DNA of 64,000 nucleotides, taken from Apostichopus japonicus. Taxonomy: Eukaryota. Each line of letters begins with the position of its first letter. Position 1 is the stretch's first letter. Shown here in pieces: positions 1 through 51,415 of the stretch. The stretch is from the NCBI RefSeq assembly GCF_037975245.1, contig NC_092564.1, forward strand, positions 11,359,891-11,423,890, in the 5' to 3' direction. The notes beneath the pieces were generated by a model, which did not search any database, was not told the DNA's origin, and saw nothing but the letters and a program-made list of their open reading frames with translations. A program made the position numbers and the translations under genes.

Positions 1-19
1 TATACAACCGTCTACCAAA

Positions 20-29
20 CAGTATTAAC
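20..29. repeat. Left target-site duplication of the Foldback element ('cagtattaac')
   Basis: The identical decamer occurs at 4565-4574 immediately outside the right TIR. A 9-bp reading, 'agtattaac', is also possible. Confidence 0.7.
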
Positions 30-1200
30 GGCCAGGTCGATAACGCGGAAACGCGGAAACCGCGGAAATCGATAAACCGGGTTCGGTAATAGAGATACCG
101 GGTTCGATATCAACGGTTTCCGCGGTTTCCGCGTTATCGACCTTGCTATATAGCAAGGTCGAAAACGCGGAAACCGCGGAAACGAGAGGAATTTGTCAAG
201 GGAGGGTGACGAAGTCTTTTGGGCGCATTTCAGCCTATATTCGCCAAAAAGGGGTGCGGGTTTAAAGCTATTTCAGTAAATGTAGGTCGAAAACGCGGAA
301 ATCGTACTTTTACAATGGACGAGTTAGATTATTTTGTCAAGGGAGGATAAAGACGTTTTTTGAGCGCATTTCAGCCAATATGCGCCAGGAGGGGTGGGAA
401 AGGGCTAAGGTTTTTTTTTATACTAAATGCAGGTCGCAAACGCGGAAATGTTTTTGTACACAATGAATGGCGAAACTAGAGGATTTGTCAAGGCGGAGGG
501 TGAAGAGTTTTCGGCGCATTTCAGTCAATATGCGCCAGGAAGGTGATGGAGTTGTAGGCTTTTCCCCTAAATGCAGGTCGAAAACGCGGAAATGTTTTTA
601 ACAAAGGCGGAACTAGAGGAGTTTGCCAAGGGAGGGAAATGAAGTGTTTTTGGCCGGCGCATTTCAGCCAATATGCGCCAGCAAAGGTGTGCGAGGTGGT
701 TTGAGGCTTTTACACTAAATACAGGTCGAAAACGCGGAAATGTTTTTAACAAAGGCGGAACTAGGGGAGTTTGTCAAGGGAGGGTGAAAAAGTGTTTTGG
801 CGCATTTCAGCTGTAATGCGCCAAGAAGGGGTGGGGTAAAATAATTTATTTTACTAAAAGCCGGTCGAAAACGCGGAATTGTTTTTTACAATGGTGAAAC
901 AAGAGAAACTAGGCACGGTGAAGATGTTTTCTGAGCGTATTTCAGCCAATATGCGCCACGAGGGGGTGCGGGAAGGGTGTAGCCTTTTTTAATACTAAAT
1001 GCAGGTCGAAAACGCGGAAATGTTTTTAACAAAGGCTGAACTAGAGGAGTTCGCTAAGGGAGGGAAATGAAGTGTTTTGGCCGGCGCATGTCAGCCAATA
1101 TGCGCCAGCAAGGTCTGGGGAGGTGGGTTGAGGCTGTTACACTAAATACAGGTTGAAAACGCGGAAATGTTTTTTTAACAATGGTGAAACTAGAGGATTT
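30..1200 (+). repeat. Foldback left arm: palindromic ~170-bp terminus plus about seven ~144-bp CpG-rich tandem subrepeats
   Basis: Unit starts 'aggtcgaaaacgcggaaat' fall at about 160, 287, 431, 575, 722, 862, 1004 and 1150. The terminus 38-150 is itself a palindrome, with 'gtcgataacgcggaaacgcggaaaccg' facing 'cggtttccgcggtttccgcgttatcgac', followed by 'ccttgctatatagcaagg'. Confidence 0.8.
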
Positions 1201-1483
1201 TGTGGTGGTTATTCCAGACATTAATCAAAGAAAATGTGACGTAGGCTATTAATATCAGAGCTTAAGTATTTCGCCATGGCATAAGTCTCAGCATACCGGT
1301 TCTTAAGCTAATAATTGAGTAGAGCTTGATATAAGTACTTCATACCCGACGAATCTAAGTGTTTTCTACATAACGATATCTCAAATAACAAACTTAAAAG
1401 AAAGAGAGTAAACACAAACGGAGGTACAATGGAAATTTTTTGATATAAACACGTATAGAACTAAAACATTAAGCTTTTTCAAG

Positions 1484-2345
1484 GTCCCGTAACACTCATT
1501 AAAGAAGTAATGATTTAGCGGTAATTTAAATCGGTCAAGCACTCTTTGGACTGGGCAAGACGCATTATGGTACTCTTCTACAATGTCATTAGAGTTCATG
1601 TTACCCAATGGTTTGGTGATCCAAGGTGTGCTGCATGGATTAGGGCCCAGAGCGTGTTCGTGGTCCCGTTACACTCATTAAAGAAGTAATGATTTAGTGG
1701 TCATTTTAATTGGTCAAGCACTCTTTGGACCGGGCAAGACGCATTACGGTACCCTTCTACAATGTCTGTAGAGTTCATATGACTCATTGGTTGGGTGGTC
1801 CAAGGCGTGCTGGTCTTGATTAGGACCCAAATGTTTTTCATTCGTTGTCCCGTTACACTAATTTAATAAGTGATTATTTAGTTGTCATTTTAATTGGTCA
1901 AGCACTCTTTGGACCGGGCAAGACGCATTATTCTACCCTTCTATAATGTCTTTAGAGTTCATATGACCCATTGGTTAGGTGGTCCAAGCCGTGCTGGTTT
2001 TGATTAGGGCCTTAAGGTGTTTTTCAGGTCCCGTTACTTTCATTTAAGAAGTGATTATATAGGGGTCATTTTAATTGGTCAAGCACTCTTTGGACCGGGC
2101 AAGACGCATTATGATATCCTTCTTCATTGTCTTAAGAATTCATATGACCCATTGGTTAGGTGGTCCAAGGCGTGCTAGTCTTGATTAGGGCCTAAAGTGA
2201 TTTTTCGTCAGGTCCCGTTTCCGTTACATTAATTTAAGAACCGATGATGTAGTGGTCATTTTAGTTGGTCAAGAACTCTTTGGACCGGGCAAGATGCACT
2301 ATGGTACCCATTTACATTGTCATTAGAGTTCAAATGACCCAGATA
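1484..2345 (+). repeat. Internal tandem repeat in the Foldback core, 5 units of ~181 bp
   Basis: Units beginning 'gtcccgttacactcattaaagaagtaatgatttag...ggtcaagcactctttggaccgggcaagacgcatta...' start at about 1484, 1663, 1847, 2028 and 2210. Confidence 0.8.
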
Positions 2346-3073
2346 AACCTCTTTTCCACGACCAAATGTTGAACATCTTGTAAGAATGCATTCGTCTTGT
2401 CATAAGTGTTACGTCGGTACCATTGTCGAATAAGTAACTGAATAGGTAGCAGTTACTCATTCGCGAACGTCGAACGAGGAATTAGTATCTAACTTCACAC
2501 CGGTATTCCAATACTGGGGAAGATGGCAGGGTTGCCAGTTTTATTGTAACGCAATCGGTCAAATAATTGTAAATGTGACTGTCTTACTTCTAATAGTTCG
2601 CAACTTCAAGTTCATACACTTCCTCCGAATCGTCCCCCAAAACATAGGTTCTATGTATTCTTTTCATAAACGATCAAAAGCTCCTTTGCCGTCCCCTAGC
2701 TGTGAAAATTCTCTAGTTCCGCCATTGTACATACGCACCTTTATATATACCGACGGGGTGGCCCCAGAGGGGGAGGGAGAAGCGGGGTAACAGTCCCCTT
2801 CCCCTCGTCGGGGAGGTCTAGCCCCCTGGTAGGGGAAATTATGATTTCGTCAGGGAGCAATGAAGAAAAAAATATATTATTGTGTATTTCTTATCATCAT
2901 AATGATCATTCTATGATAAAGATAAATGTAGGAAAATCAGTCCCCGACAGGTGTCAGCCGCACCGACATACGGGCTTCAAACTTCTCTCATATACCAAAA
3001 AAGACACCACAAATTACCGCGCGCTTCGGCAATATTAGATTTATATATACATAGATATGTATCTGTATGTGCA

Positions 3074-3081
<8 letters not shown>

Positions 3082-3104
<23 letters not shown>
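3082..3104. repeat. (TA)n microsatellite abutting hairpin element copy 1
   Basis: Direct read of the sequence. A second AT-rich run lies at 3283-3350. Confidence 0.9.
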
Positions 3105-3282
3105 GAGTAGGTTGGCGTCTATCTTGGCGCAGAGTGCTCTATGTCCATTGGACAGAGCGGAATATATGTTGATACTAGATGAGACTAGTGGAACACTAGT
3201 AGATTGTCTGAAGATCGCTATAAAGCGTGAAACTCCGAGTTACAACTACTAGTGTTCCACTAGTCTCATCTAGTATCAACAT
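3105..3282. mobile_element. Small hairpin/palindromic element, copy 1 (truncated left arm), nested in the Foldback core and embedded in (TA)n
   Basis: The 56-bp head 'agagtaggttggcgtctatcttggcgcagagtgctctatgtccattggacagagcg' precedes palindrome arms 'gatactagatgagactagtggaacactagtag' and 'ctactagtgttccactagtctcatctagtatc'. The same module occurs at 26205-26420. Confidence 0.7.
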
Positions 3283-3309
3283 ATATATACATATATATGT
3301 ATGTGTAAG

Positions 3310-3345
<36 letters not shown>

Positions 3346-3479
3346 TTTTTTTATTAATATTACAACGTGCACACAATTGTTTCCGGGGACCTTAGCTCCT
3401 GTGTCGGAGAAATCCTGGAACCATCCCTGCATACCAATTGGACGTTAACAAACATTACTGAGTTTTCTGCCTGTATTTA

Positions 3480-4564
3480 GTGAAAAAAAGCTTCAAACCC
3501 AAACCCTAATTCTTGGCGCATGTTGGCTGAAATGCGCCCAAAACATTTCTTTACATTTCCTGCATGCATTTAGAGTATTTCCGTCATTGTTAAAAAAAAT
3601 TCGCGTTTTCGACATGCCTTTAGTGAAAAGACCTCAACCTCACCCCTTTCTGGCGCCTATTTGCTAAAATGCGCCCAAAACACCTTTTCACCCTGTCTTA
3701 ACAAAATCATCGAGTTGTGAAAAATGTTGTGAAGAAAAAAAAATTCGCGTTTTCGACATGCCTTTAGTAAAAAGACCTCAACCTCACCCCTTTCTGGCGC
3801 CTATTTGCTAAAATGCGCCCAAAACACCTTTTCACCCTGTCTTAACAAAATCATCGAGTTGTGAAAAATGTTGTGAAAAAAAAAAAAATTCCGCGTTTTC
3901 GACCTACACTAACTGAAAAAAGTCTCATACCCCCACTCCATCCTTGCACATATCGGCAAACACTTTTTTCCGCGTTTTCGACCTGCATTTAGTGATAAAA
4001 GCCTCAACCCCCTCCCCTCACCCCTTCCTGTCGCATTTTGGCTGAAATGCGCAGATCAAAAACATTTCTTTTCCCTCCCTTAGCAAACTCCTCTAGTTCC
4101 GGCTTTTCTTGAAAACATTTCCGCGTTTTCGACCGGCATTTAGTGAAACAAAATCTTCTATCCCCACCCCTCCTGGCGCATACTGGCTGAAATGCGCTCC
4201 AAATTTTTTCACCCTCTCTTGACAAATCATCTAGTTTCGCCATTGTAAAAAAAAAACATTTCCGCGTTTTCGACCTACACTACCCTCCCTTGACAAAATA
4301 ATCTAACTCATCCATTGTAAAGTACGATTTCCGCGTTTTCGACCTACATTTACTAGCTTTAAACCCGCACCCCTTTTTGGCGAATATAGGCTGAAATGCG
4401 CCCAAAAGACTTCGTCACCCTCCCTTGACAAATTCCTCTCGTTTCCGCGTTTTCGACCTTACTATATAGCAAGGTCGATAACGCGGAAACCGCGGAAACC
4501 GTTGATATCGAACCCGGTTTCTCGATTTCCGCGGTTTCCGCGTTTCCGCGTTATAGACCTGGCC
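3480..4564 (-). repeat. Foldback right arm: inverted copy of the left-arm subrepeat array plus terminal palindrome
   Basis: 'cgcgttttcgac' unit starts fall at 3603, 3751, 3893, 3970, 4122, 4263, 4333 and 4447. The terminus 'ccttactatatagcaaggtcgataacgcggaaaccgcggaaaccgttgatatcgaacccgg...' is the reverse complement of 100-200. Confidence 0.8.
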
Positions 4565-4574
4565 CAGTATTAAC
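4565..4574. repeat. Right target-site duplication of the Foldback element ('cagtattaac')
   Basis: Matches 20-29 exactly. The element is bounded by 'ggccagg...cctggcc'. Confidence 0.7.
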
Positions 4575-4732
4575 CCCTCAGTACTCTTTATCATAACTGA
4601 AGGTTCTGCTGTAGAAACAGGGTCCCAATCCTAATGTCAAAATTACGTTATCATGTATTAAAGTATTCAGAGATGCCAAGGTCAGATGTTTTTTAGGCGG
4701 GTGAAAATTGTCTGGTGCTGTTGGTTACGTAC

Positions 4733-4828
4733 ACCATCTAAGCGGAGCACCACCATGGGTTGGCACGAAGCGTACAAGAAAATTTTGGGATCTTACGGCC
4801 CCTCCGATGGCCGGAAACATCACTTCCC
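4733..4828 (-). repeat. ~95-bp dispersed repeat, copy A (module '...aagtgccatttcc..aaaattttcttgtacgc..cgcgccaac.catggtggcgct.cgcttagatagt')
   Basis: The reverse complement of 4733-4828 aligns with the copies at 10770, 11450, 11926 and 29231. Confidence 0.7.
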
Positions 4829-6001
4829 GGGTCATCTAAGCTGAATCTATACTGTTTCCTTATATGTATTGTGTCTATTTTTTTTTCATTCCAGAGGAGA
4901 AAATTTCTTGAAATAAAAAAAATCTCTGAAATTTTGCGGACGCTGTAGCGTTCACGTGTGTCGTAACGGTATATTATTTTTCACGAATCGTATAGGTAAC
5001 GTTGCTTTCAGCCGGGCATATTTAGCACGATCGGCTTTGAGTAATTTCCGATCCTGGCGGTTCTGAGATAATTCGCATTTTGGTGTGATGAAATGAATTT
5101 CACGCTAGCAATGATACACTTTTACAGGAAAAACTCTGTGGGCCTACAATGGGGGAGATTCTTCAAAAATGCGGGAGTTTTTTGGAAATGCGGGAGATTC
5201 GGACAGGTGGGCGGGTGAGCGCTAGACGACCCGAAAATGCGGGTGACACCCGCCCAAAGCGGGTGACTTGGAAGCACTGAGTATTACTCGTGACTTGTGC
5301 GGTACCAAACACATGTTACATCCGAGGCATTTTTACGACTGGAGGGGGGGTGGGGTGCTCATCTTTTGACATTTTTGGCATTCCTATGCAAACTGTAAAA
5401 GTAGTATGCAGTTTTCCCTGCATACACTGTTTTGTCTTATCTGACACAGTCTTCAATTTTTCACATATATTAGGGGTAAAAAACATCTTTCATTTGGAAT
5501 ACAGAACATTCATTCTTTGATGCTGTACTGAATATAGGTTATATTGTGACTATTTTTAAACGAGATTATTAAAGTCGAGACAAACTCCGAATTTCTTGTT
5601 TTGTCATTTGTTTGGTCTTACGTCACCTTAAGCTTCCAAAGACATAAAAATAATGTAGTAATAATAAAGTATGTCGTGATTAAAATCCCTCAGGCTGGGA
5701 AAAAGAACAATAGGCAGAACCATTTATTCGAACGAGACCCCCCAAAAAGCGAATTATTATAATTAATTAGCGATGTCAGGGCTTTGCTCACACGAAATGT
5801 CATCTTCTGCTTACATACATGGTTTCCTTTACGTTGTTCGCAGTCGATGAATAATAAAAAGAACAAAAAACCAAGCGTTTTCGGTAAGTTGTTAGTAGCT
5901 TTCTTGTAAATTACAAGTGTGCGACAAAGGTTTCCAGAATCGAATACTAGTAGTCCTTCTTTTTTTCTTTTGTGAATACTCCCTCATTTTAATAAAAATT
6001 A

Positions 6002-6070: not shown

Positions 6071-7016
6071 GGCAGATGTTTTCACGACCACGAATGTGGC
6101 AGAACCCCGCAAGGGCTTACGGATTACAATGTTCACGTCGGGTGGCTTCAACATTGCTTCTCAAATTTGGAATCTTTTGAAGTTAGAAAGTCATTTACAG
6201 ATGGAAAAAACCGTATAGATTGCTCTTGGATGAAAAATCCACCTTACTATGGCCCGGCCGGGCGATCAAACCTAGAACCTTCCCGTTGCTAAGCCTCGTC
6301 ATTGCTTCAAATACCACCGTCGGTTATCCACTCGGCCACAGCAAGGGTGATATTGTTTCATTCTTCATTTTCTTATTCCAAACAATATATTCGTAATTCG
6401 CATTACTTAAGCGTTATAATTGGATTCATTCTGCAATTTCATGCAAAACCTGTCTACATACAATCTACTTTACCCGGTATATTTATTAAATAAATGTCCA
6501 CACTCTCTATACACTCCTGCAAAAAGTGAACTCTGGATTTTCCGCTGGAGGAAAGGGAAGAGGTGGGGGAGGGGTGTGGGAGGCGAATTCGTTATGTGCC
6601 ATTATAGTCTTTTGGAGAAAATCTCAAAGTGACATTTCATTAGTACAATTTTCTATTATTTAACTAAAAGGGTTCCCTCTAAAATTTGAGAAGAAAAACA
6701 CAGAACGTATTTCAAGAGAGCCTCGCTGGAATTTGTGATACGGAATGCAATTAAGAATCCATTTGACAATGTGTCGGCGGAATGTTTTGAGGTATAAATT
6801 AATGGTTTGCCCACTCAAATCAAAGTCCCATGTCCTACTGCCTCTCATGATTAGTTCCCCTCTCCTCTCCTCCGAATTCTCCTCTACCCTCCAGAAAAAA
6901 AAATAGATATAGTTTGAAATGTATAATTTTATTTTTGTTCTTAGAAATGCAAATCGTTTGCAATTTTGGATAAATAACAATCACTTTAAAACACTTGGAT
7001 ATTCTTGTTGTTGTTA

Positions 7017-7091
7017 TATTATTATTATTATTATTATTATCATCATCATTATTATTATTATTATCATCATCATCATTATTATTATTATTAT
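7017..7091. repeat. (ATT)n/(ATC)n microsatellite
   Basis: Direct read. It generates the poly-Tyr/His and poly-Ile pseudo-ORFs. Confidence 0.95.
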
Positions 7092-9083
7092 AGGCATCAA
7101 ACTACCACTACATCTGAAGTAAGATATGAATATGATATGCAGTTACTTTTTGTTAGTTACCAACATCAAAAACAGTCTTCCCAACTCCAAAATCGTCAAG
7201 GACACTCATGATTACGTCATTCTGCTATCATATTTAATTGGTTGAAAGAATCTCTTATATATCACTTACCGCAACTTTGAGGTTTTTCTACTTTTAAAAG
7301 ACATAGTAAATGAGAATGATCCCTTTCTTAAAGACTCAGTAAAAATATGAGAACAACTGACCTCGGAGACACCCGAGACAACTTAACTACCTACGTGACC
7401 AATTTTTGGCTCATTCTTGCTTAGGGTCATTATATTTCAGCGTCACGTGTACTTGTTTCATCACGCAGATACAGAGATATATAGACGAGGAGGGCTGATA
7501 GAAGAATAATTTTTCTAAACAGTAACATAAACTGTCGTCCCCGATATATTCTATTTTAGTCCACTACTAACCATCATAACAGGATATTCTTTATCTTTGT
7601 AATCAATCTCAGTGCCTTTTGATTACAACTATACCTACTAGCGTATCGAGAAAGTCTTTTCTAGGATAAAATACTGACCGAGAAATTGTGTAAGAGCAAC
7701 AGGGCGTAAATAATATACTATACCATAAAGAGATCATTGTGCCACTGTTTAAGTGCAGTGTGCTTATAGACCTATGTGTTACATCAGGTTGATGTGGTTG
7801 TGTATCTACCTATATTGTATCGTTTACTCTAGAATACTTTAATTAAAGGGACACAAGGAGATCAACAAATGCTGCGGAAGGTGGCTAATTCTGGGAGGGA
7901 GGGGGGGGGGGGGATCAAAAGTTCGAATAGCAGTTGGACATGTGATTTTGATTTGAGGGAGCAGAACAGCAAAAAGATACGCCCCGACAAAATGGTACTC
8001 TGCGTATTTTCTGTACGACAAATGCCATGATTCGAATGAGTTAGACTTTCAAAGTTGTACCAAACAATAACAGTTGTTGCTTATAGCGGAGTAGTTGATA
8101 TACTTACGGACCAGCAATGTACTGTACATGCTTTGGTTGTATAATACATTGCCAGGGAGTAAAGGTGAATATATATATTGCGGTTGTTGCTTCATCTTGC
8201 ATGTTCTTTAGCACCCCCCGACCCACCCACCCCACCCGCTCTCCCTATTAATTATATTTCTCTTATGACGTTATTTCATCGATTTCACTCCCCCATCGGT
8301 TTTATTTCTTTGAGAGATGACGTTCCTTTAAATATCAGACTCATTAATTACAGTAGCTGGACTACCACGTCTAGCACACAAAACATTCGGGCATCTATTC
8401 AGAATCTATTCTAAAATTAATGGAAATATGGTTTTATGGTCTCAAATAATTCTTCACATGCCTTATACAAAGTTGTCAATGACAGAAATCTTGAATATTA
8501 TCATCAAGAGAGTGTCCCGTTTTTTCCCCTCATTTCTAAAACAAAGGGTTAATATCAATAATTGAATCCGGACTCATAACTTATTAGCCGACCCCATTGT
8601 TTCAGGCTTAAAGGATCATTCCATGACAACTATATATGCAGGCCCGTCGCACCCGCTACGGTAGGTACGGTATTTACCGTACCACTTTTCAGCTAAAAAC
8701 AAAGAGAGAGGGGGAGAAGAAAATAGGTGAGGGAGTTAGAAAATACAGTTCGAATCAATAAAATGCACGAGTCTTCATGACCAAAGCCGACCCTCTGTAC
8801 CATCATTGTGTCCTATGATGCGATGAGCCCCGGATGAGCCGGCACGAATTATTCAACGAATCTCAAGTTGTAACTGGGGCGATAGGGGCCTACGATTCGA
8901 GTCGCACCGAATTTCCCCAAACCCCCGAATTCCCCCCATTTCCCTAAGAAGGTGTCAAACCCGGAGATGTTTTACTTAGTTGAGCAGTGTAACAGTAAAT
9001 ACCGTCCGGATAATTAGGGCAACGTACAATGTATAGGGCGTGTCCCCGCGCTGCGCTACACCGGCAACTCAACGCAAAGGAAA

Positions 9084-9635
9084 GTGCCAGCCAGATTAGT
9101 TTCTGGTTCGGCCGCGGATATCATGCCTCCAGAATCAGTGGAGGACTACTTCAGGCGAATATACCTGGAGGCAGTTGACACCATTGTCAACTGCATCCGC
9201 GATAGATTTGATCAGGAGGGTTACAAAATCTACTCAAAACTACAGCAGCTGCTTCTCAAAACGTGTAACCAACAACATGTTGACGAAGAACTGTTAAAAT
9301 TCGTATGTGACTTTTACGGCGAGGATCTCCGTAAGGGCGAGCTCAGAGTCCAACTAGAAACCCTTGGGGAAACCATGGAAGCTACGGCCAAACAATCAGA
9401 GTGGACTTTGCCAGAGGTTGTTGACCACATGCGAGGGTTGAGTTTCGGTAATCGTGAGCTCCTCTCACAAGTGTGCACGCTTGTCAAACTAATTTTAGTG
9501 ATGCCTGCGACAAATGCAGTAAGTGAACGCTCATTTAGTGCTATGAGTGTAAAGAGTTACTTAAGGTCTACAATGACCCAGCAGCGACTCAACCACCTTA
9601 TGATCTTACATGTACACAAAGATTATGCGGATTGA
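9084..9635 (+). pseudogene. hAT-superfamily transposase remnant (C-terminal hAT dimerisation region only)
   Basis: The translation ends '...LVMPATNAVSERSFSAMSVKSYLRSTMTQQRLNHLMILHVHKD', the signature hAT C-terminal dimerisation motif. ZMYM1-like, ZBED-like and P52rIPK-like proteins all share the '..SERSFS....K..LRS.M...RL..L..L..' pattern. No upstream ORF encodes the BED/RNase-H-like catalytic part. Confidence 0.7.
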
Positions 9636-10346
9636 TTGAATCTAGTTGATGCAGCCAACGAATTTACCAGTGCCAAAGACCATCGACGCTCGGTGTTTGG
9701 TACTTTCCATTGATTTGAGTTCGCAGTAGAACGCTGCACACTAACCGATAGCCGGTGCTCCTTTTAACAGCGCCCATGCCCAGGAGCCCATGCTCTTCAG
9801 TATAGTAGTCGTTGTGATACCGGGAGCTTATAGGAGCATTAATTCCAGGAAGAAAGAGGGCTAAATTATACGAAAAATGCTCACATTTGCTGACCCTACA
9901 ACTCTAATCCTCAACCCTAACAAAGGATACAGTAGATCATCCTATACAACTGAATTGCTACAGGCAATCGGGTAATATCCTATATTCTGCGCCCCAACTG
10001 CAGAAAGAACAATGCTTGGAATTTGGAAATTGGAAAAAGTACTGCAGTATGGAGAGGATTCCACCCAGGTGTTGGTTGTCACCAACGCCGTAACGAAATA
10101 ATCATTGTTAACGTTTATTGCATAATTTCAAAAGCCTCACAGAGACTAACCGCACTCGGCGAAATCTTTGCTCACCCACAAAACATTTTTGAGGCCCTAA
10201 CCTCAAAGGAAGGTAGACTAATTGAGGAATCATTTTAGATAATCGTAACACTCATAAGAACTAGCAAAATTATCAAATTCGGATAAACTGTAACTATTCA
10301 GGTGCGTATCCAGGGGGGGACGTTGGGGGCGCGCGCCCCCCAGGTA

Positions 10347-10476
10347 AGGAAAAGAGGAGAGAAAAAAAAGAGAAGAAAAAAGGGAAAAGGAGGGGAAAAA
10401 AGAAAAGGAGGAGAAGAAGGAAGGGAAAAGAAAAAGAAAAAAGAGAGAAAAGGGAGAAAAGGGAGAAAAGGAGGGA
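10347..10476 (+). repeat. ~130-nt pure polypurine (GA-rich) / polypyrimidine tract
   Basis: The + strand is almost exclusively A/G: 'aaggaaaagaggagagaaaaaaaagagaagaaaaaagggaaaaggaggggaaaaaagaaaagg...'. It generates mirror-image spurious ORFs on both strands. Confidence 0.9.
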
Positions 10477-10769
10477 GCAGAAGATAGCCAAGACCTCGGG
10501 AAGAGAAAGATCCCTATTATATACACAGGGTAGCCAGTGACAGATCAAGGATTACGGAGGGGGTGTGCGCCTCACCCTACCCCTTACCCCGACAACTCCA
10601 TTTTGACGTTCCGTTTTTCCTCTCTCACTAATGTACTTGAACTCGACCGAGTCGTCGGGGAACATAACGCATTTCGGGAAGGGGGCGACCGCCCCCCGAG
10701 CAAATTTTCTTTATGACATCGCTAGTAATTTCAAAATAGACAATGCTTAGATGCAACTTACAAGGCCTG

Positions 10770-10864
10770 GGAAGTGTCATTTCCAGCGATCTGGGAGGCA
10801 TTTTCGGCCAAAATTTTTCTTGTACGCTTCGCGCCAACTCATGGTGGCGCTTCGCTTAGATAGT
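10770..10864 (+). repeat. ~95-bp dispersed repeat, copy B
   Basis: 'ggaagtgtcatttccagcgatctgggaggcattttcggccaaaatttttcttgtacgcttcgcgccaactcatggtggcgcttcgcttagatagt'. It is followed at 10893 by a solo MITE terminus 'cctacgcctatg'. Confidence 0.7.
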
Positions 10865-11449
10865 TTGCCTACAGGCTTCGCCCCCGTCTCCTACGGGACC
10901 TACGCCTATGAGTGAAGTGTTCGGTTTCGATATACCTGATATCGGAAATATCTGCTATTTTTCTGTTCCTTCAACCAAGTTTTGTAAAAGCCATTATAAG
11001 AGGTTGCAATATTTCTACACCAATAAATTAACTGTGTCGGAATTTTCCAAAATTTCCTCACCAACATTCTTCATCATACTTTCCTCTACTCGTTCAATTT
11101 TCACCTGTCTGTTAGGGGTTCAAGGAGGTTTTTCTATATTGGTTGTCTATAGATTGAATTTTGTGCAACATTATGGGTATGTTTTCAAGTGATTTTATTC
11201 ACGAGAAAAGGGAATTTTCAAATTCTCAACAAGTAATGGGCTTAAAACCTTCAAAAGTGGGGCTTTCGGATATTGTGGGCCGTGACGTAGAATAACCTAC
11301 AAAAGCAATGATCCATAGGACATGCAATCAGGTCGAACATGATGTGTGACTGGTGACAATCTTCAAAAAGGTTATGGATGGAAAAAAACTTTTGGGAAAT
11401 ACTTGGTTCTCAGGCAAAAGTGTACATCTAGTTGCTCATTTTCAAGCCC

Positions 11450-11544
11450 GAGAAGTGCCATTTCCGGTGATCTGGGGGGTATCAAAACCAGAAATTTTCT
11501 TGTACGCTCCGCGCCAACCGATGGTGGCGCTCCGCTTAGATAGT
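11450..11544 (+). repeat. ~95-bp dispersed repeat, copy C
   Basis: 'agaagtgccatttccggtgatctggggggtatcaaaaccagaaattttcttgtacgctccgcgccaaccgatggtggcgctccgcttagatagt'. Confidence 0.7.
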
Positions 11545-11925
11545 AATTCGCGCCCCCGGGTTAGAAAATCCTGGATACGCGCCTGCTATTACAGTACAGG
11601 CAGTTCTGAACCTTTCATTTATTTTTACTGGCGTAACGACGGTGCGGCCGTCCCGCCACTAAGTTGGAAAAGACCTCCAGCCCGTCGGAATTTCTACCAT
11701 TCATACCCCTACTATAAGACCCTAGCTAGTAGCTATACCGCCCTGCATACACTTTGTAAGTTCAAAGTGCTATATGCTCTTCCGGTGCAGCTGTGAAGGA
11801 CATGGGCGCGAGAAGGTAGAACATCCATGACTAAAGATGGGATTCTTCAGTTCATGTAGTTATAAATGAAAAAATACTGAGTTCGCAGGAGGAGAGTGTA
11901 CAACATCGTGGCCAAATTTTGCCCC

Positions 11926-12018
11926 GCAAGTGCCATTTCCAGCCATCTGGGCGGTTAGAAGATTCAAAAATTTTCTTGTACGCAGCGCCAACCGATGGTG
12001 GCGCTCCGCTTAGATAGT
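11926..12018 (+). repeat. ~95-bp dispersed repeat, copy D
   Basis: 'gcaagtgccatttccagccatctgggcggttagaagattcaaaaattttcttgtacgcagcgccaaccgatggtggcgctccgcttagatagt'. Confidence 0.7.
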
Positions 12019-13195
12019 AAATCGAACCGGTCAACAAAAATACCGTACCACTTTCAAATACCTTCCGACGGGCCTGTATATATGTACATATTAAACTATA
12101 GTAACTTGAAAACGGAAGTAGCCATATACAAATATTGCCTGCAGACTACTAAGACACAGAAGCGAGTTCAATAAGACAATAGATAATTAACAATGCCGCG
12201 AGAGTTTGAAACAAAGTTTTTATTATGAAGTTAACATATTCCGGGCGTGTGAGTGACAACTTCAAGAATTTGAAATAAAGTCGTCCGATTAATTTGATAT
12301 GTGACTCTCAGAAAATGCTGCGCTTTTAAACTACCGTATATAATGTATAGTGAACTGGACCGTTCTTAATATCTGAACTAAAAAGGACCAGTTCGGAACT
12401 GATGTTGCGAAAACTTAATCAGACGGAAGGAGAAAGCCCTCGTGCAACTGCAGAGATGAACAATGGTTACTGTATGTATAATTCAAACCCGAAAAGTATA
12501 TATTCCATTCGAGGAACAGATAGTATTCCTTAGATAATTACACGTACCAGTTTGTGTATAGCCTGTGTGAAGTGGAGTAAAACCTATACAGTTTTGTTTA
12601 CGCCTTCTCTGAGTACAAATCAACCATATTTATACAGATCGGGTGAACTCTTATTATGTGTACAGTTTTTCAACTTAATGAAAGTGTCAAGGAAAATTTC
12701 AATATCGCTGCATTAGAAGGATGATTTACGGGATTTTGTTTTTATTTAAACCAGTAACATGAGTAACTTTTAATGTTCCTGATTGATATGGGAAGTTTAT
12801 TTCAATGTTGGAACTGCTTGTTTTAATGGAGTAGCGGATTTGGGTTGTTGTTCTTTCCATTATCACTTACATATGCGATCGATAGTTGAGTAATTACGTG
12901 ATGAGGATTTGATAAGTCATTGAGTACTTTCGATAGTGTTGGACATTTTGTCGTCATCGATATTTTTAATTCAAGAGAAAGCTCTTAAGAACAACCTTTG
13001 TGATGCCAATGTAATAAGAGCATTATTTATTTAGCTTGGAAATAAAACGTTTTGCAACTTGAACAATTTTGCGACTTATTTAATGTCAATTTTGTTTTTT
13101 GGTTAATCCATCTCTACATAACACTACGGGGAACTATTTATTCTGCTACCAAACTACGACTGTGAAACAAATCCTAAAGGGATACTTCAAGCATC

Positions 13196-14497
13196 ATGAA
13201 TATTCATTCAAAGGGACCCAATCACGGCCGAAAGAAAGCCATTCGGAATGCAGAAATAGAAGCACATCTTCGAAATAACGCAGTTGACGCAACTCTTGAG
13301 GTACAAATTGCAACATTAAACGAAAAAGAACGAAAGACCACCAGAAAGTTACAGACGCAATCTCGTAGTCTCTTAGAGTCGATACAAAGCGTCAAACTAG
13401 GACGCAGACAGCGTAATAAATCACTTCCGCGTAATTCGATGGTCCGGTCACGGAGTGGAAGTTTGACATCTTCTATCCCGAGACCCAGGACCTGCTTAGC
13501 TGATACATTCAATGTCGAACAGGGAAATGGCGTAGAAGTATTAAAGCTGCCTTCCATTGGAACGAAGTCTTTTGACAAAAATCGAAGTCTGCGCAGACTT
13601 AACTCTTCAGCACTGCAAAGGCGACGATTCAGTGAAAATGACGCGCTCGTTGAGTCACTGCGACGATTTAATGCGTTACGCATCGATGATTCGAATAATG
13701 AGTCTAGTAATCAAGACGACGGTCCGGAAATCTTACCTGTTGAACTGCCGAAATCGGCCAGACTTAGGGGCCGATCAGGGTCCTGTTTTGGGCGCCTGAT
13801 ATCTCATGCTGTTCCAGAACAAAACGACGACATTGTAATAGATACGGATCCACTCGAGAAAACCTATTCGACCATTAACTGTGCCGAAGAAAATATTTCA
13901 GGATCACATGACAACGAAATAAGTACTCAGAACCTTGACAAACAGTTAGAGAGTAAGACAAACAGATTAGAACAAACCGATAACCGCGATTCTGATATCG
14001 ATGCTGAAACGTGCACCGGGGATGTTGATGATGAAACGAAGTCTGAATATGAAGATGACTTAGCTAAAATCATACCCAAAATTGTGATTTCCGAGCATAA
14101 AAATAATTTGCCATCTCCGCCGAATGACGACAGAGCCAGTTCAACAAAAAGATCAGAGAGATCACTGCTATCTGCGAATCCGAGAAGACGTCTCTATGGA
14201 ACGCCGTCTGCACAGTCTGACTGGAGTAGGAATAAACCACTTCGTGAGGCCCGAAAGAAAAACACCTCCATATTGCCCTCGACATTCGCTGCTCTTTCCA
14301 TGAGTCGGAGGTTTTCGAGTCCAGATCCCTCAGAAGATGCAGTAAGAGCTCAACAAAGATTCCTAGAAAAGCTTAATCGTAGACGACGAAGCGAACAGAA
14401 TGAACTAGCGCAAAAGGTTCAAGAATTTATGAAACAATATACGCTTAGTAATAAGGAATTAGTTGATGAAGAAGGGGATAATGAAATAACTGAATAG
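13196..14497 (+). CDS. Intronless 433-aa ORF encoding a Ser/Arg/Asp/Glu-rich low-complexity (predicted disordered) protein with short coiled-coil segments and many RRxS-type motifs; hypothetical protein
   Basis: The reading frame is 1302 nt long, uninterrupted and non-repetitive, in roughly 38%-GC DNA where random ORFs rarely exceed about 80 codons. The ATG context is 'catcATGA' with A at -3. It matches no repeat family in the window. No domain was recognised by eye. Confidence 0.55.
   Translation: MNIHSKGPNHGRKKAIRNAEIEAHLRNNAVDATLEVQIATLNEKERKTTRKLQTQSRSLLESIQSVKLGRRQRNKSLPRNSMVRSRSGSLTSSIPRPRTCLADTFNVEQGNGVEVLKLPSIGTKSFDKNRSLRRLNSSALQRRRFSENDALVESLRRFNALRIDDSNNESSNQDDGPEILPVELPKSARLRGRSGSCFGRLISHAVPEQNDDIVIDTDPLEKTYSTINCAEENISGSHDNEISTQNLDKQLESKTNRLEQTDNRDSDIDAETCTGDVDDETKSEYEDDLAKIIPKIVISEHKNNLPSPPNDDRASSTKRSERSLLSANPRRRLYGTPSAQSDWSRNKPLREARKKNTSILPSTFAALSMSRRFSSPDPSEDAVRAQQRFLEKLNRRRRSEQNELAQKVQEFMKQYTLSNKELVDEEGDNEITE

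Positions 14498-26134: not shown

Positions 26135-26135
<1 letters not shown>

Positions 26136-26204
<69 letters not shown>
26136..26204. repeat. (TA)n microsatellite, left flank of hairpin element copy 2
   Basis: Direct read of the sequence. Confidence 0.95.
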
Positions 26205-26208
<4 letters not shown>

Positions 26209-26418
26209 TAGGTTGGCGTCTATCTTGGCGCAGAGTGCTCTATGTCCATTGGACAGAGCGTAATATATGATGAGACTAGTGGAACACTAGTAGTTGTTAC
26301 TCGGAGTTTCACGCGTTATAGCGATCTTCAGACAACTGTTGTCTGAAGATCGCTATAACGCGTGAAACTCCGAGTAACAACTACTAGTGTTCCACTAGTC
26401 TAATCCAGTAGTATCAAC

Positions 26419-26420
<2 letters not shown>
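26205..26420. mobile_element. Small hairpin/palindromic element, copy 2 (full ~70-bp perfect arms) flanked on both sides by long (TA)n
   Basis: Same 56-bp head, then a perfect palindrome centred at about 26338: '...actagtggaacactagtagttgttactcggagtttcacgcgttatagcgatcttcagacaac|tgttgtctgaagatcgctataacgcgtgaaactccgagtaacaactactagtgttccactagt...'. Confidence 0.75.

Positions 26421-26506
<86 letters not shown>
26421..26506. repeat. (AT)n microsatellite, right flank of hairpin element copy 2
   Basis: Direct read of the sequence. Confidence 0.95.
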
Positions 26507-28540: not shown

Positions 28541-29230
28541 GCCTTCATTTATGCATCATCGTGAATGTACGGCTCTTTTTAGCTTCATTTCTCGCCTACC
28601 ATAAACGCAGTGCGATCTTTTCAAATAAACCGTCTTTATAAAGCAAGAATAATTGACTGTAGGCTTCATTGGCCCTATAACAACAAAATGTATTATTGCG
28701 CCCACCGTATTGATATAGTACATATATGCACCCTCATAGTATTCATATAGGCCCTATAGTAGGCCTACACACGAACATGTTCCCTCGAACAGCTGAGAAT
28801 CTCATGTTACCAGGGTAATGCTTAATACACGTTTCACCTGGATGCCCTAGCAATCGGTACCTAGGAATGTAACTATGTGTAAGTTGTGTATTGCATGTGT
28901 ATAGGCCTATAATAGCCTGCATGATACCATTTTCTTCATTGAATAATATAAAAGAGCTCTCGAACATTCTAACGTAGCGCCTGAAACAAGATTGACAGGG
29001 GCAATTTTCCCAAAATAACACCCGAAATTAAAAAAAAAAAAGTATTTTGGATCCTGATTTTGAGATATTTCGGACATGATATCCCTATTTTCTTTCTTCA
29101 GGGAGTCTTCCACATTGTTAAGCTTTTAAGCTTTATGGAAGACTTCCCTCCACTTTGTACTTTTGTGGCAAACAAATAAATAAAAAAAATAAAAAAAGTT
29201 GGGTATTATATATGCCGCTTGGAAACCTCG

Positions 29231-29325
29231 GCAAGTGCCGTTTCCGGCCATCTAGAGGGTTTGTAAATCCCAAAATTTTCTTGTACGCTTCGCGCCAACA
29301 CATGGTGGCGCTACGCTTAGATAGT
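29231..29325 (+). repeat. ~95-bp dispersed repeat, copy E (followed by MITE-family GC-hairpin fragment 29340-29420)
   Basis: 'gcaagtgccgtttccggccatctagagggtttgtaaatcccaaaattttcttgtacgcttcgcgccaacacatggtggcgctacgcttagatagt'. Confidence 0.7.
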
Positions 29326-49009: not shown

Positions 49010-49320
49010 TTCTGTTGCTTGCAAGTGACATTTTGTTTGTGTCGCTACAAATGCAGACAGTAATGAAATGTGATACCTTGTTATCTTTAGCTGGACCTGA
49101 GATGTCCATCGCTGTATTGTTTGTATACTGTGCTGCGGGTATTGACCGCATCTGTATGTACTGCTAGACACTAGTGTCTAATTATCGACAGTAGCAAGTT
49201 GTTTACGTATTTTCTGGGATCGATGGTGGTGTTTAGCACTTCTGTTACACCTCATTCGAAACTAGGTCAAATTACCGACATCAGACATTTCTTTTTGCGC
49301 GAGTCTTCACACCCTTCAAT
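49010..49320 (+). repeat. tRNA-related SINE-like repeat, copy 1 (~155-bp core 49165-49320 plus ~150-bp 5' extension)
   Basis: The core is '...gtattttctgggatcgatggtggtgtttagcacttctgttacacctcattcgaaactaggtca...gagtcttcacaccc'. It contains a box-A-like 'tggtggtgtttagcac' and a box-B-like 'ttcgaaact'. It matches the copies at 51113-51415 (-) and 51425-51578 (+). Confidence 0.6.
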
Positions 49321-51112: not shown

Positions 51113-51415
51113 GAAAGAGTAACTTAAAGGGTGTGAAGACTCGCGCAAAAAGAAACGTCTAATGCCGGTAATCTGACCTAGTTTCGAATGAGGTGTAGCA
51201 GAAGTGTTAGACACCATCATCGATCCCAGAAAATACACACACAGCTTGCTACCGTCGGTAATTAGACACAAGTGTACAGTCACTGCATACAGCTGCGGTC
51301 AATACCTAAAGCACAGTGTAGCCTATAGACGATACAGCGATGGACATCTCAGGTCCAGCTAAAGATAACAAGGTATCACGTTTCATTACTGTCTGCATTT
51401 TGTAGCGACACAAAC
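51113..51415 (-). repeat. SINE-like repeat copy 2, inverted relative to copy 1. With copy 1 it brackets exon A and the 5' flank of the - strand gene.
   Basis: The reverse complement of 51113-51415 aligns to 49010-49320 over about 300 bp at roughly 85-90% identity. Confidence 0.65.

Follow-up and report, generated by a model that had tools for sequence, protein, structure and literature searches.

We examined a 64-kb stretch of the genome of the holothurian Apostichopus japonicus (the window; scaffold MRZV01000063.1 of GCA_002754855.1, where scaffold position = 465690 - window position), close to the left edge of which lies an inverted-repeat element of 4535 bp, at positions 30-4564. Its tips (GGCCAGGTCGATAACGCGG… on the left, the tip start also being written GGCCAGGTCGAWAACGCGG, and …CCTGGCC on the right) are followed inwards by long arms of tandem units and by a modular middle segment, and the element encodes no recognisable protein. 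We consider it likely that a non-autonomous cut-and-paste DNA transposon of the foldback type (FB-like) inserted once to give 30-4564; the element belongs to a kind already known, of which it is a well-preserved example, and does not represent a new one. The parts of the locus, with the approaches by which they were delimited, are as follows.

20-29: left target-site duplication (TSD) copy, CAGTATTAAC, identical to 4565-4574 and adjoining the left tip
30-183, + strand: left terminal module, with the tip GGCCAGGTCGA, short repeats of CGCGGAAA(C), 8-9 bp each, and the motif AGGTCGAWAACGCGGAAAC present three times in + - + order (motif search, DNA fold)
156-1203, + strand: left-arm array of units L1-L8, 128-148 bp each, L8 being a partial unit of 54 bp (Tandem Repeats Finder (TRF), unit alignment and consensus, nhmmer)
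1204-2676: middle segment, non-coding, mostly a ~182-bp tandem array, with no Pfam matches
1478-2393, + strand: tandem array of 5 x ~182 bp (repeat search, TRF, profile search)
2677-2729, - strand: orphan arm-subrepeat fragment, probably the inner half of unit R9 (nhmmer E-value 0.0096, model positions 26-74)
2730-3440: probable secondary insertion or insertions in the innermost right-arm unit, with a G/C-rich stretch (~2755-2835) and a hairpin element in a TA microsatellite (boundaries inferred)
3035-3341: nested hairpin element in (TA)n tracts (perfect arms found by repeat search)
3441-4459, - strand: right-arm array of units R1-R9, of which R2 (69 bp) and R5 (79 bp) are truncated (TRF, segmentation, nhmmer)
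4441-4564, - strand: right terminal module, in + - + order like the left one, ending …TATAGACCTGGCC (motif search, arm alignment, fold)
4565-4574: right TSD copy, CAGTATTAAC, adjoining the right tip

The boundaries of the element are precise. The left junction reads …TCTACCAAA CAGTATTAAC and then GGCCAGGTCGATAACGCGGAAAC…, the right one …GTTTCCGCGTTATAGACCTGGCC and then CAGTATTAAC CCCTCAG…, with the duplication placed directly beside the inverted tips on both sides, as is looked for in foldback-type elements. The 23-nt tips are inverted copies of each other with one mismatch. On both strands of the 64 kb, the 10-mer occurs twice, each time at a flank of the element, and identity at 10 of 10 bases at a fixed position has a chance probability of ~1e-6. 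The duplication of 9-10 bp that the initial annotation had proposed at these positions is thus borne out, its length being 9 or 10 bp because one C may be part of a tip instead. The same annotation had named as a danger to its reading that the 10-mer might belong to a larger segmental duplication; the bases outside the 10-mer are unlike on the two sides, which, within the limits of the 19 bp of flank available on the left, shows that the 10-mer is not the edge of such a duplication. An unoccupied site, with one CAGTATTAAC only, is predicted to read TCTACCAAACAGTATTAACCCCTCAGTACTC.

The two arms, 30-1203 (1174 bp) and 3441-4564 (1124 bp), are inverted with respect to each other and consist of subrepeats of ~139-148 bp, referred to here as ~144-bp units. 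Global alignment of the left arm with the reverse complement of the right one gave 275 matches, 4 mismatches and 4 indels (21, 9, 5 and 1 bp; 36 bp in total) in an outer zone of 315 versus 279 bp, which corresponds to 98.6% of aligned bases, while the inner zone has 84.9% identity at aligned bases and 60.7% of columns, with 51 gap runs. Over the whole length of the arms 67% of alignment columns match, the differences amounting to 111 substitutions and 55 runs of indels. They had been described as exact inverted copies, a description that comes close only for the outer ~300 bp; apart from it, the core of the initial proposal of a complete Foldback-type transposon stands, namely the precise tips, the 10-mer, the arms of tandem units carrying the tip motif, the lack of coding capacity and the modular middle.

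TRF reported a period of 141 x 7.1 at 176-1203 for the left array and a period of 144 with 97% matches at 3592-3903 for the right one, full-length units ranging from 128 to 151 bp over both arms. With a unit profile, nhmmer recovered eight left-arm units, each with an E-value between 1e-32 and 1e-38, and 8-9 right-arm units, and, apart from the weak fragment at 2677-2729 (-), no further match in the window at E < 0.6. Together with the 8-9-bp repeats of the tips, these units make up most of the terminal inverted repeats (TIRs), as expected of a foldback-type element. Each unit opens with AGGTCGAAAACGCGGAAA and contains a second conserved block, the small palindrome GGCGCAT-N10-ATGCGCC; GC skew is +0.31, both arms being G-rich in the direction from tip to inside. 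The outermost units pair between the arms (L1 and R1, 100%; L2 and R2, 96%), whereas the inner ones are closest to units of their own arm (L4 and L7, 95%; R6 and R7, 98%). R6/R7, judged by this identity, is a recent duplicate. Since outer units match across the arms and inner ones within an arm, and since R2 and R5 are shortened, each arm appears to have been remodelled separately by duplication and deletion of units.

The 18-nt motif AGGTCGAAAACGCGGAAA lies just inside the tip and is repeated once per unit; allowing up to three mismatches, the window contains 18 copies against 0.03 expected, and all of them fall within 34-4560. Their orientation mirrors that of the arms, except for one reversed copy near each end. 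At the left terminus the copies lie at 34-51 (+), 126-143 (-) and 156-173 (+), and the right terminus is a mirror image, 30 bp shorter because of the 21-bp and 9-bp deletions. The + - + order of the motifs allows two overlapping alternative hairpins at each terminus. In DNA folding, the left terminus reached -56.4 kcal/mol (z -10.2), with a stem of ~32 bp at 115-183, and the right one -39.4 kcal/mol (z -7.1). The self-complementarity that had been noticed in the outermost ~170 bp is real, but it does not take the form of a simple palindrome, being made up of three modules of ~20-35 bp in + - + order. The inner palindrome of the terminus, the counterpart of the tip-to-tip junctions in the metagenome contig L004 described below, has lost its GGCC and reads CGACCTTGCTATATAGCAAGGTCG. 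From tip to inside, the repeat period grows from ~9 bp to ~144 bp.

Between the arms lies an interior of ~2.25 kb (1204-3440/3455), and not of 3.3 kb as first thought. Its main part, 1204-2676, resembles neither the arms nor the remainder of the window. The internal tandem family previously given as 5 x 181 bp was recovered as five copies of ~182 bp, 65-88% identical to the reference copy (TRF period 184 x 4.7, 83% matches), and a profile of the unit found no copies in the window besides these five. As had been noted, the interior lacks a transposase open reading frame (ORF), in that no interior ORF matches Pfam; Rfam families and tRNAs are absent from the window altogether. Inward of the right arm, 3478-3441 joined to 2729-2677 forms one continuous profile match (model positions 6-75). 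Because the fragment at 2677-2729 comes into register with the degenerate unit 3441-3478 once 2730-3440 is removed, the innermost right-arm unit, R9, was probably split by a later insertion of ~0.7 kb; this is suggestive, not proven, and the inferred boundaries of 2730-3440 show no clean TSD. The nested hairpin reported earlier is also present, with perfect 41-nt arms at 3162-3202 and 3246-3286, and a second copy of it was found at 26135-26479 (345 bp at 79% identity, rising to 97% in a core of 67 bp). Both copies have (TA)n on either side, and the copy within the foldback element is missing part of one arm compared with the 26-kb copy. This hairpin repeat may be a miniature inverted-repeat transposable element (MITE) that targets or carries TA repeats. 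The surrounding element itself, at 4535 bp, is far from the size of a MITE, MITEs being typically < ~800 bp, non-coding and of high copy number.

Observed/expected ratios of CpG reach 2.13 in both termini and are lower in the arms (1.36 and 1.34) and the interior (0.89); the remaining window has 0.67, its 1.1-kb windows giving a mean of 0.66 with a standard deviation of 0.32. The subrepeats had been described as full of CCGCGG/ACGCGG and, on that ground, as possible targets of methylation or silencing. The arms are indeed rich in CpG (~1.35), but the five CCGCGG sites all lie in the two termini rather than in the subrepeats, each unit having one ACGCGG inside its motif. An excess of this kind (1.35-2.1 versus 0.67) is the opposite of the mark that long-term germline methylation leaves, and the idea of the arms as long-standing methylation targets is therefore without support. 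The excess is more simply explained by CpGs in the conserved, reiterated motif (selection on a binding site) and/or by a young element or unmethylated DNA.

Relatives of the termini were sought by scanning metagenome contigs for one exact 20-mer motif, which gave 10 loci. Nine of these, single matches in high-GC bacterial contigs, were set aside as chance. The tenth, Ga0115013_10259400 (L004; 1062 bp, 43% GC, CpG observed/expected 1.26), belongs to a different and presumably eukaryotic genome. L004 carries the motif five times, at 8-27 (-), 37-55 (+), 172-190 (+), 194-213 (-) and 228-246 (+), once with a complete tip, GGCCAGGTCGAAAACGCGGAA, and its positions 183-253 align to window positions 113-182 (80% over 71 nt, E-value 7e-13). 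The contig then carries a 177-bp tandem array that is unlike anything in the window. Finding the terminal module alongside different internal repeats is as expected for a conserved transposon end. Within L004 1-260, motif copies also stand tip to tip, as …CGACCTGGCC ACCACC GGCAGGTCG…, with the GGCC tip intact, and the two occurrences of this junction lie 199 bp from each other. We considered, and rejected, a homology of the 182-bp interior array with the 177-bp L004 array: a single 19/20 match scored 33 locally, the shuffle maximum being 29, and the profile E-value of 0.076 was not significant.

In the foldback-type transposon that we favour, a transposase supplied in trans would bind to the reiterated motif, whose many copies would act as secondary binding sites that strengthen recognition of the ends. 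Because of the analogy with known foldback-type elements, the 18 copies are most likely transposase-binding sites, and we predict them as such. For Muta1, more subterminal repeats gave stronger transposase binding in vitro (PMC5499845), and the repeats of Tetris have been proposed, like those of Galileo, as secondary transposase-binding sites (PMC4079207, PMC3573991). The transposase would make a staggered cut of 9-10 bp in the target, a length that fits Mutator and Mutator-like elements (MULEs), including Phantom, best. The TSDs of MULEs are 8-11 bp, usually 9 (PMC6446971), a range into which the 10 bp observed here (9 possible) falls, and this length suggests a Mutator-like transposase. The arms would grow, shrink and diverge independently through unequal exchange or slippage between units, as may be compared with Galileo, in which both TIRs of a single copy can differ in their number of tandem repeats (PMC3573991); the outer ~300 bp would have been kept near-identical by recent homogenisation or would reflect a recent origin. 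The middle segment would be cargo, consisting of the 182-bp minisatellite and later nested insertions.

Several observations weigh against this interpretation or limit its reach. The length of the TSD is the sole basis for the assignment to Mutator. One copy of the element has been seen, with none further in the 64-kb window, and just 29 bp of its left flank lie inside the window. The metagenome scan yielded one relative, L004, which is a single contig and was found via an exact 20-mer seed, so that it carries weight only through its extra matches. The two-motif pattern was absent from the metagenome, prokaryote-genome and viral collections, and the palindromic motif pair from the genome and viral collections, none of which includes an echinoderm genome. 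Concatenates of the arm ORFs (505 aa) and of the interior and flank ORFs (992 aa) had no matches among 5.8 billion proteins, and exact look-ups of the small ORFs in or near the element gave no record. As to the insertion site, Logan contigs of other A. japonicus runs that contain a neighbouring gene for a 433-aa protein begin at window position 7062, short of the site, and the corresponding locus of Holothuria leucospilota (L014) aligns only in the coding part and in a repeat resembling a short interspersed nuclear element (SINE), is too diverged for a comparison of insertion sites and has no arm units.

The rival account that survives best, although we hold it to be unlikely, keeps the foldback-type transposon and attributes its movement to a superfamily other than Mutator, namely P (Galileo-like), hAT or Merlin, the architecture being convergent. 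Foldback architecture does evolve independently, and Galileo is a member of the P superfamily with long TIRs carrying internal repeats (PMC3573991, PMC4079207); moreover, only the length of the TSD ties the present element to MULEs, and no transposase was found in this copy. That length nevertheless speaks against the account, as the flanking repeat of 10 bp (9 if one base belongs to the tip) lies within the 8-11-bp range of MULEs (PMC6446971) and differs from the 7-bp TSD of Galileo (PMC3573991) and the 7-8 bp of P elements. For hAT, an 8-bp TSD and short CAG...CTG-type TIRs would be expected in place of the 10 bp and GGCC... tips found here, and the active hAT element in the same window makes an 8-bp TSD and has CAGGCCCGTCG tips. 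Merlin elements have TSDs of 8-9 bp.

It is much less probable that the locus was never mobile and arose when a 144-bp minisatellite was duplicated locally in inverted form, or from two independent insertions that lie in opposite orientation around host DNA, with a 10-bp repeat that is coincidental. The single copy and the strongly diverged inner arms would suit such an origin, most of each 'arm' being one of two opposed minisatellite arrays. Inverted similarity, however, peaks at the outer ends and stops on both sides at the base beside the perfect 10-mer; the inner ends of the arms have no tip-like sequences or duplications; and the terminal module recurs in an unrelated contig with other internal repeats, which is expected of a transposon end and not of a local duplication. 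Long-read assemblies can contain artefactual palindromes. That a chimeric palindromic long read or a mis-join produced a false inverted duplication in the A. japonicus reference, which was built from Illumina and PacBio reads (PMC5638244), can nonetheless be all but dismissed, since artefactual palindromes are near-perfect about one centre whereas the arms here differ by the many substitutions and indels given above, have duplicated different units and enclose 2.25 kb of sequence that is unique and asymmetric, and since the flanking 10-mer would be left unexplained. The peak of identity at the ends by the 10-mer, the diverged and asymmetric arms and the module in an unrelated contig together make both the duplication and the assembly palindrome fall short.

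Taking the element as a foldback-type transposon, its closest described analogues are Tetris, Tm1, Muta1 and Galileo. In FB-like elements generally, the TIRs are composites of tandem repeats and the TSDs measure 8-10 bp; most such elements are assigned to Mutator (PMC4079207, PMC3169594). Tetris of Drosophila virilis (PMC4079207) resembles the A. japonicus element in its long TIRs, where a terminal domain leads into long tandem repeats that vary in number and measure ~220 bp as compared with ~144 bp here, in that these repeats have a stretch in common with the terminal domain, and in a non-coding, variable middle; its TSD is 8-10 bp, and no autonomous copy was found for it either. The two are from different host phyla and share no sequence relationship, and in the A. 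japonicus element every unit carries the actual tip motif, the terminus is arranged + - + and, within the window, the units show no satellite expansion outside the element. Muta1 of Aedes aegypti and Tm1 of Meloidogyne likewise combine a TSD of 8-10 bp with a short terminal motif and reiterated subterminal repeats (PMC5499845, PMC3169594), and the two TIRs of one Tm1 copy are unequal in repeat number, with an average identity of 93% (PMC3169594). These Mutator/Phantom elements differ in their repeats of 12-15 bp and TIRs of 0.1-0.3 kb, compared with 144-bp units and 1.1-kb arms here, and in having MULE transposases, whereas the A. japonicus copy has no ORF with a Pfam match. Galileo (P superfamily, Drosophila) is similar in its TIRs of up to ~1.2 kb and in its ~210-bp tandem repeats, which change independently in each arm, but has a 7-bp TSD, a THAP/P-type transposase and tandem repeats in only part of the TIR (PMC3573991).

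The reference of the initial annotation to sea-urchin TU elements is pertinent, A. japonicus being an echinoderm too. The outer domains of TU elements of Strongylocentrotus purpuratus, described by Liebermann et al. in 1983 and Hoffman-Liebermann et al. in 1985, reportedly consist of arrays of a ~15-bp repeat, flanked by an 8-bp TSD. The likeness is one of structural analogy only: both have an echinoderm host, a foldback form and long modular inverted repeats, and middle or insertion segments of TU reportedly contain sequences that are also present in other places without arms, as is the hairpin element here, with its second copy at 26.1 kb. The reported ~15-bp repeats and 8-bp TSD of TU differ from the 8-9-bp and then ~144-bp units and the 10-bp TSD of the present element. 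With FB of Drosophila melanogaster, again as a structural analogy only, the element shares arms of tandem repeats, a period that grows inwards and unequal arms; the 9-bp TSD of FB is compatible with the 9-10 bp here, and most FB copies are non-coding. FB has periods of 10, 20 and 31 bp, as opposed to ~9 and then ~144 bp, and an ORF of the FB4 type is not present here.

A bolder extension of the foldback-type interpretation, which we regard as doubtful, is that the element is the holothurian member of a foldback lineage that has TU among its relatives and extends across echinoderms or more widely across marine invertebrates, with a tip motif, GGCCAGGTCGAWAACRCGGAA (19-21 nt), common to the environmental contig, and that the + - + tips may record unusual end-processing or alternative-end transposition. 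If this were true, the tip motif could serve in a search for the transposase by which such elements are moved, and the + - + motifs, with the tip-to-tip junctions and the intact GGCC tip in L004, would be the trace of an unusual transposition mechanism.

The remainder of the window holds further repeats and a gene. An hAT element of 3438 bp lies at 8639-12076, between two copies of the 8-bp TSD TATATATG (8631-8638 and 12077-12084); its tips read CAGGCCCGTCG… and …CGACGGGCCTG, and an ORF at 9084-9635 encodes an hAT dimerisation domain (PF05699). Two Logan contigs (L012 and L013, from A. japonicus runs SRR32534852 and SRR23999932) continue across the site, where they read GACAACTATATATGTACATATT and contain TATATATG only once; this hAT element is an insertion polymorphism with a precise empty site. 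A dispersed repeat of ~120 bp occurs at 4733-4851, 10748-10864, 11447-11544, 11922-12018 and 29207-29325 (76-82% identity between copies), one copy being 160 bp to the right of the foldback element and three inside the hAT element. It was also found in the H. leucospilota locus, at 6139-6253, 7031-7159 and 8619-8703 (75-81%), and is therefore an old SINE-like family common to holothurians; it has no tRNA or Rfam match. A 152-nt inverted repeat with 89% complementarity (49168-49319 and 51124-51275, arms 1.8 kb apart) may be another TIR element. The 433-aa product is encoded by a serine-rich, single-exon ORF at 13196-14497, and an identical product is present on MRZV01000063.1 (448193-455494, reversed), which belongs to the A. 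japonicus genome project MRZV00000000 and so identifies the window as sea-cucumber DNA. The product has no Pfam domain, and a search of 5.8 billion proteins detected one homologue only, a hypothetical protein of 434 aa from H. leucospilota (48% identity; L014 10001-11305), so the gene appears to be restricted to holothurians.

Unclassified repeats make up about 19% of the A. japonicus assembly (PMC5638244). For part of this sequence, an element with clean boundaries such as the present one offers a curated annotation seed, with its tips, TSD, unit consensus and likely transposase-binding motif. As the tip motif occurs once per ~144-bp unit, the 'secondary binding sites' model would be easy to test given a transposase. 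As is known from Drosophila FB and Galileo, foldback elements readily cause inversions, deletions and breakage induced by hairpins, and Tetris foldback elements seeded a satellite DNA. A foldback family in A. japonicus would thus be relevant to structural variation in an aquaculture species.

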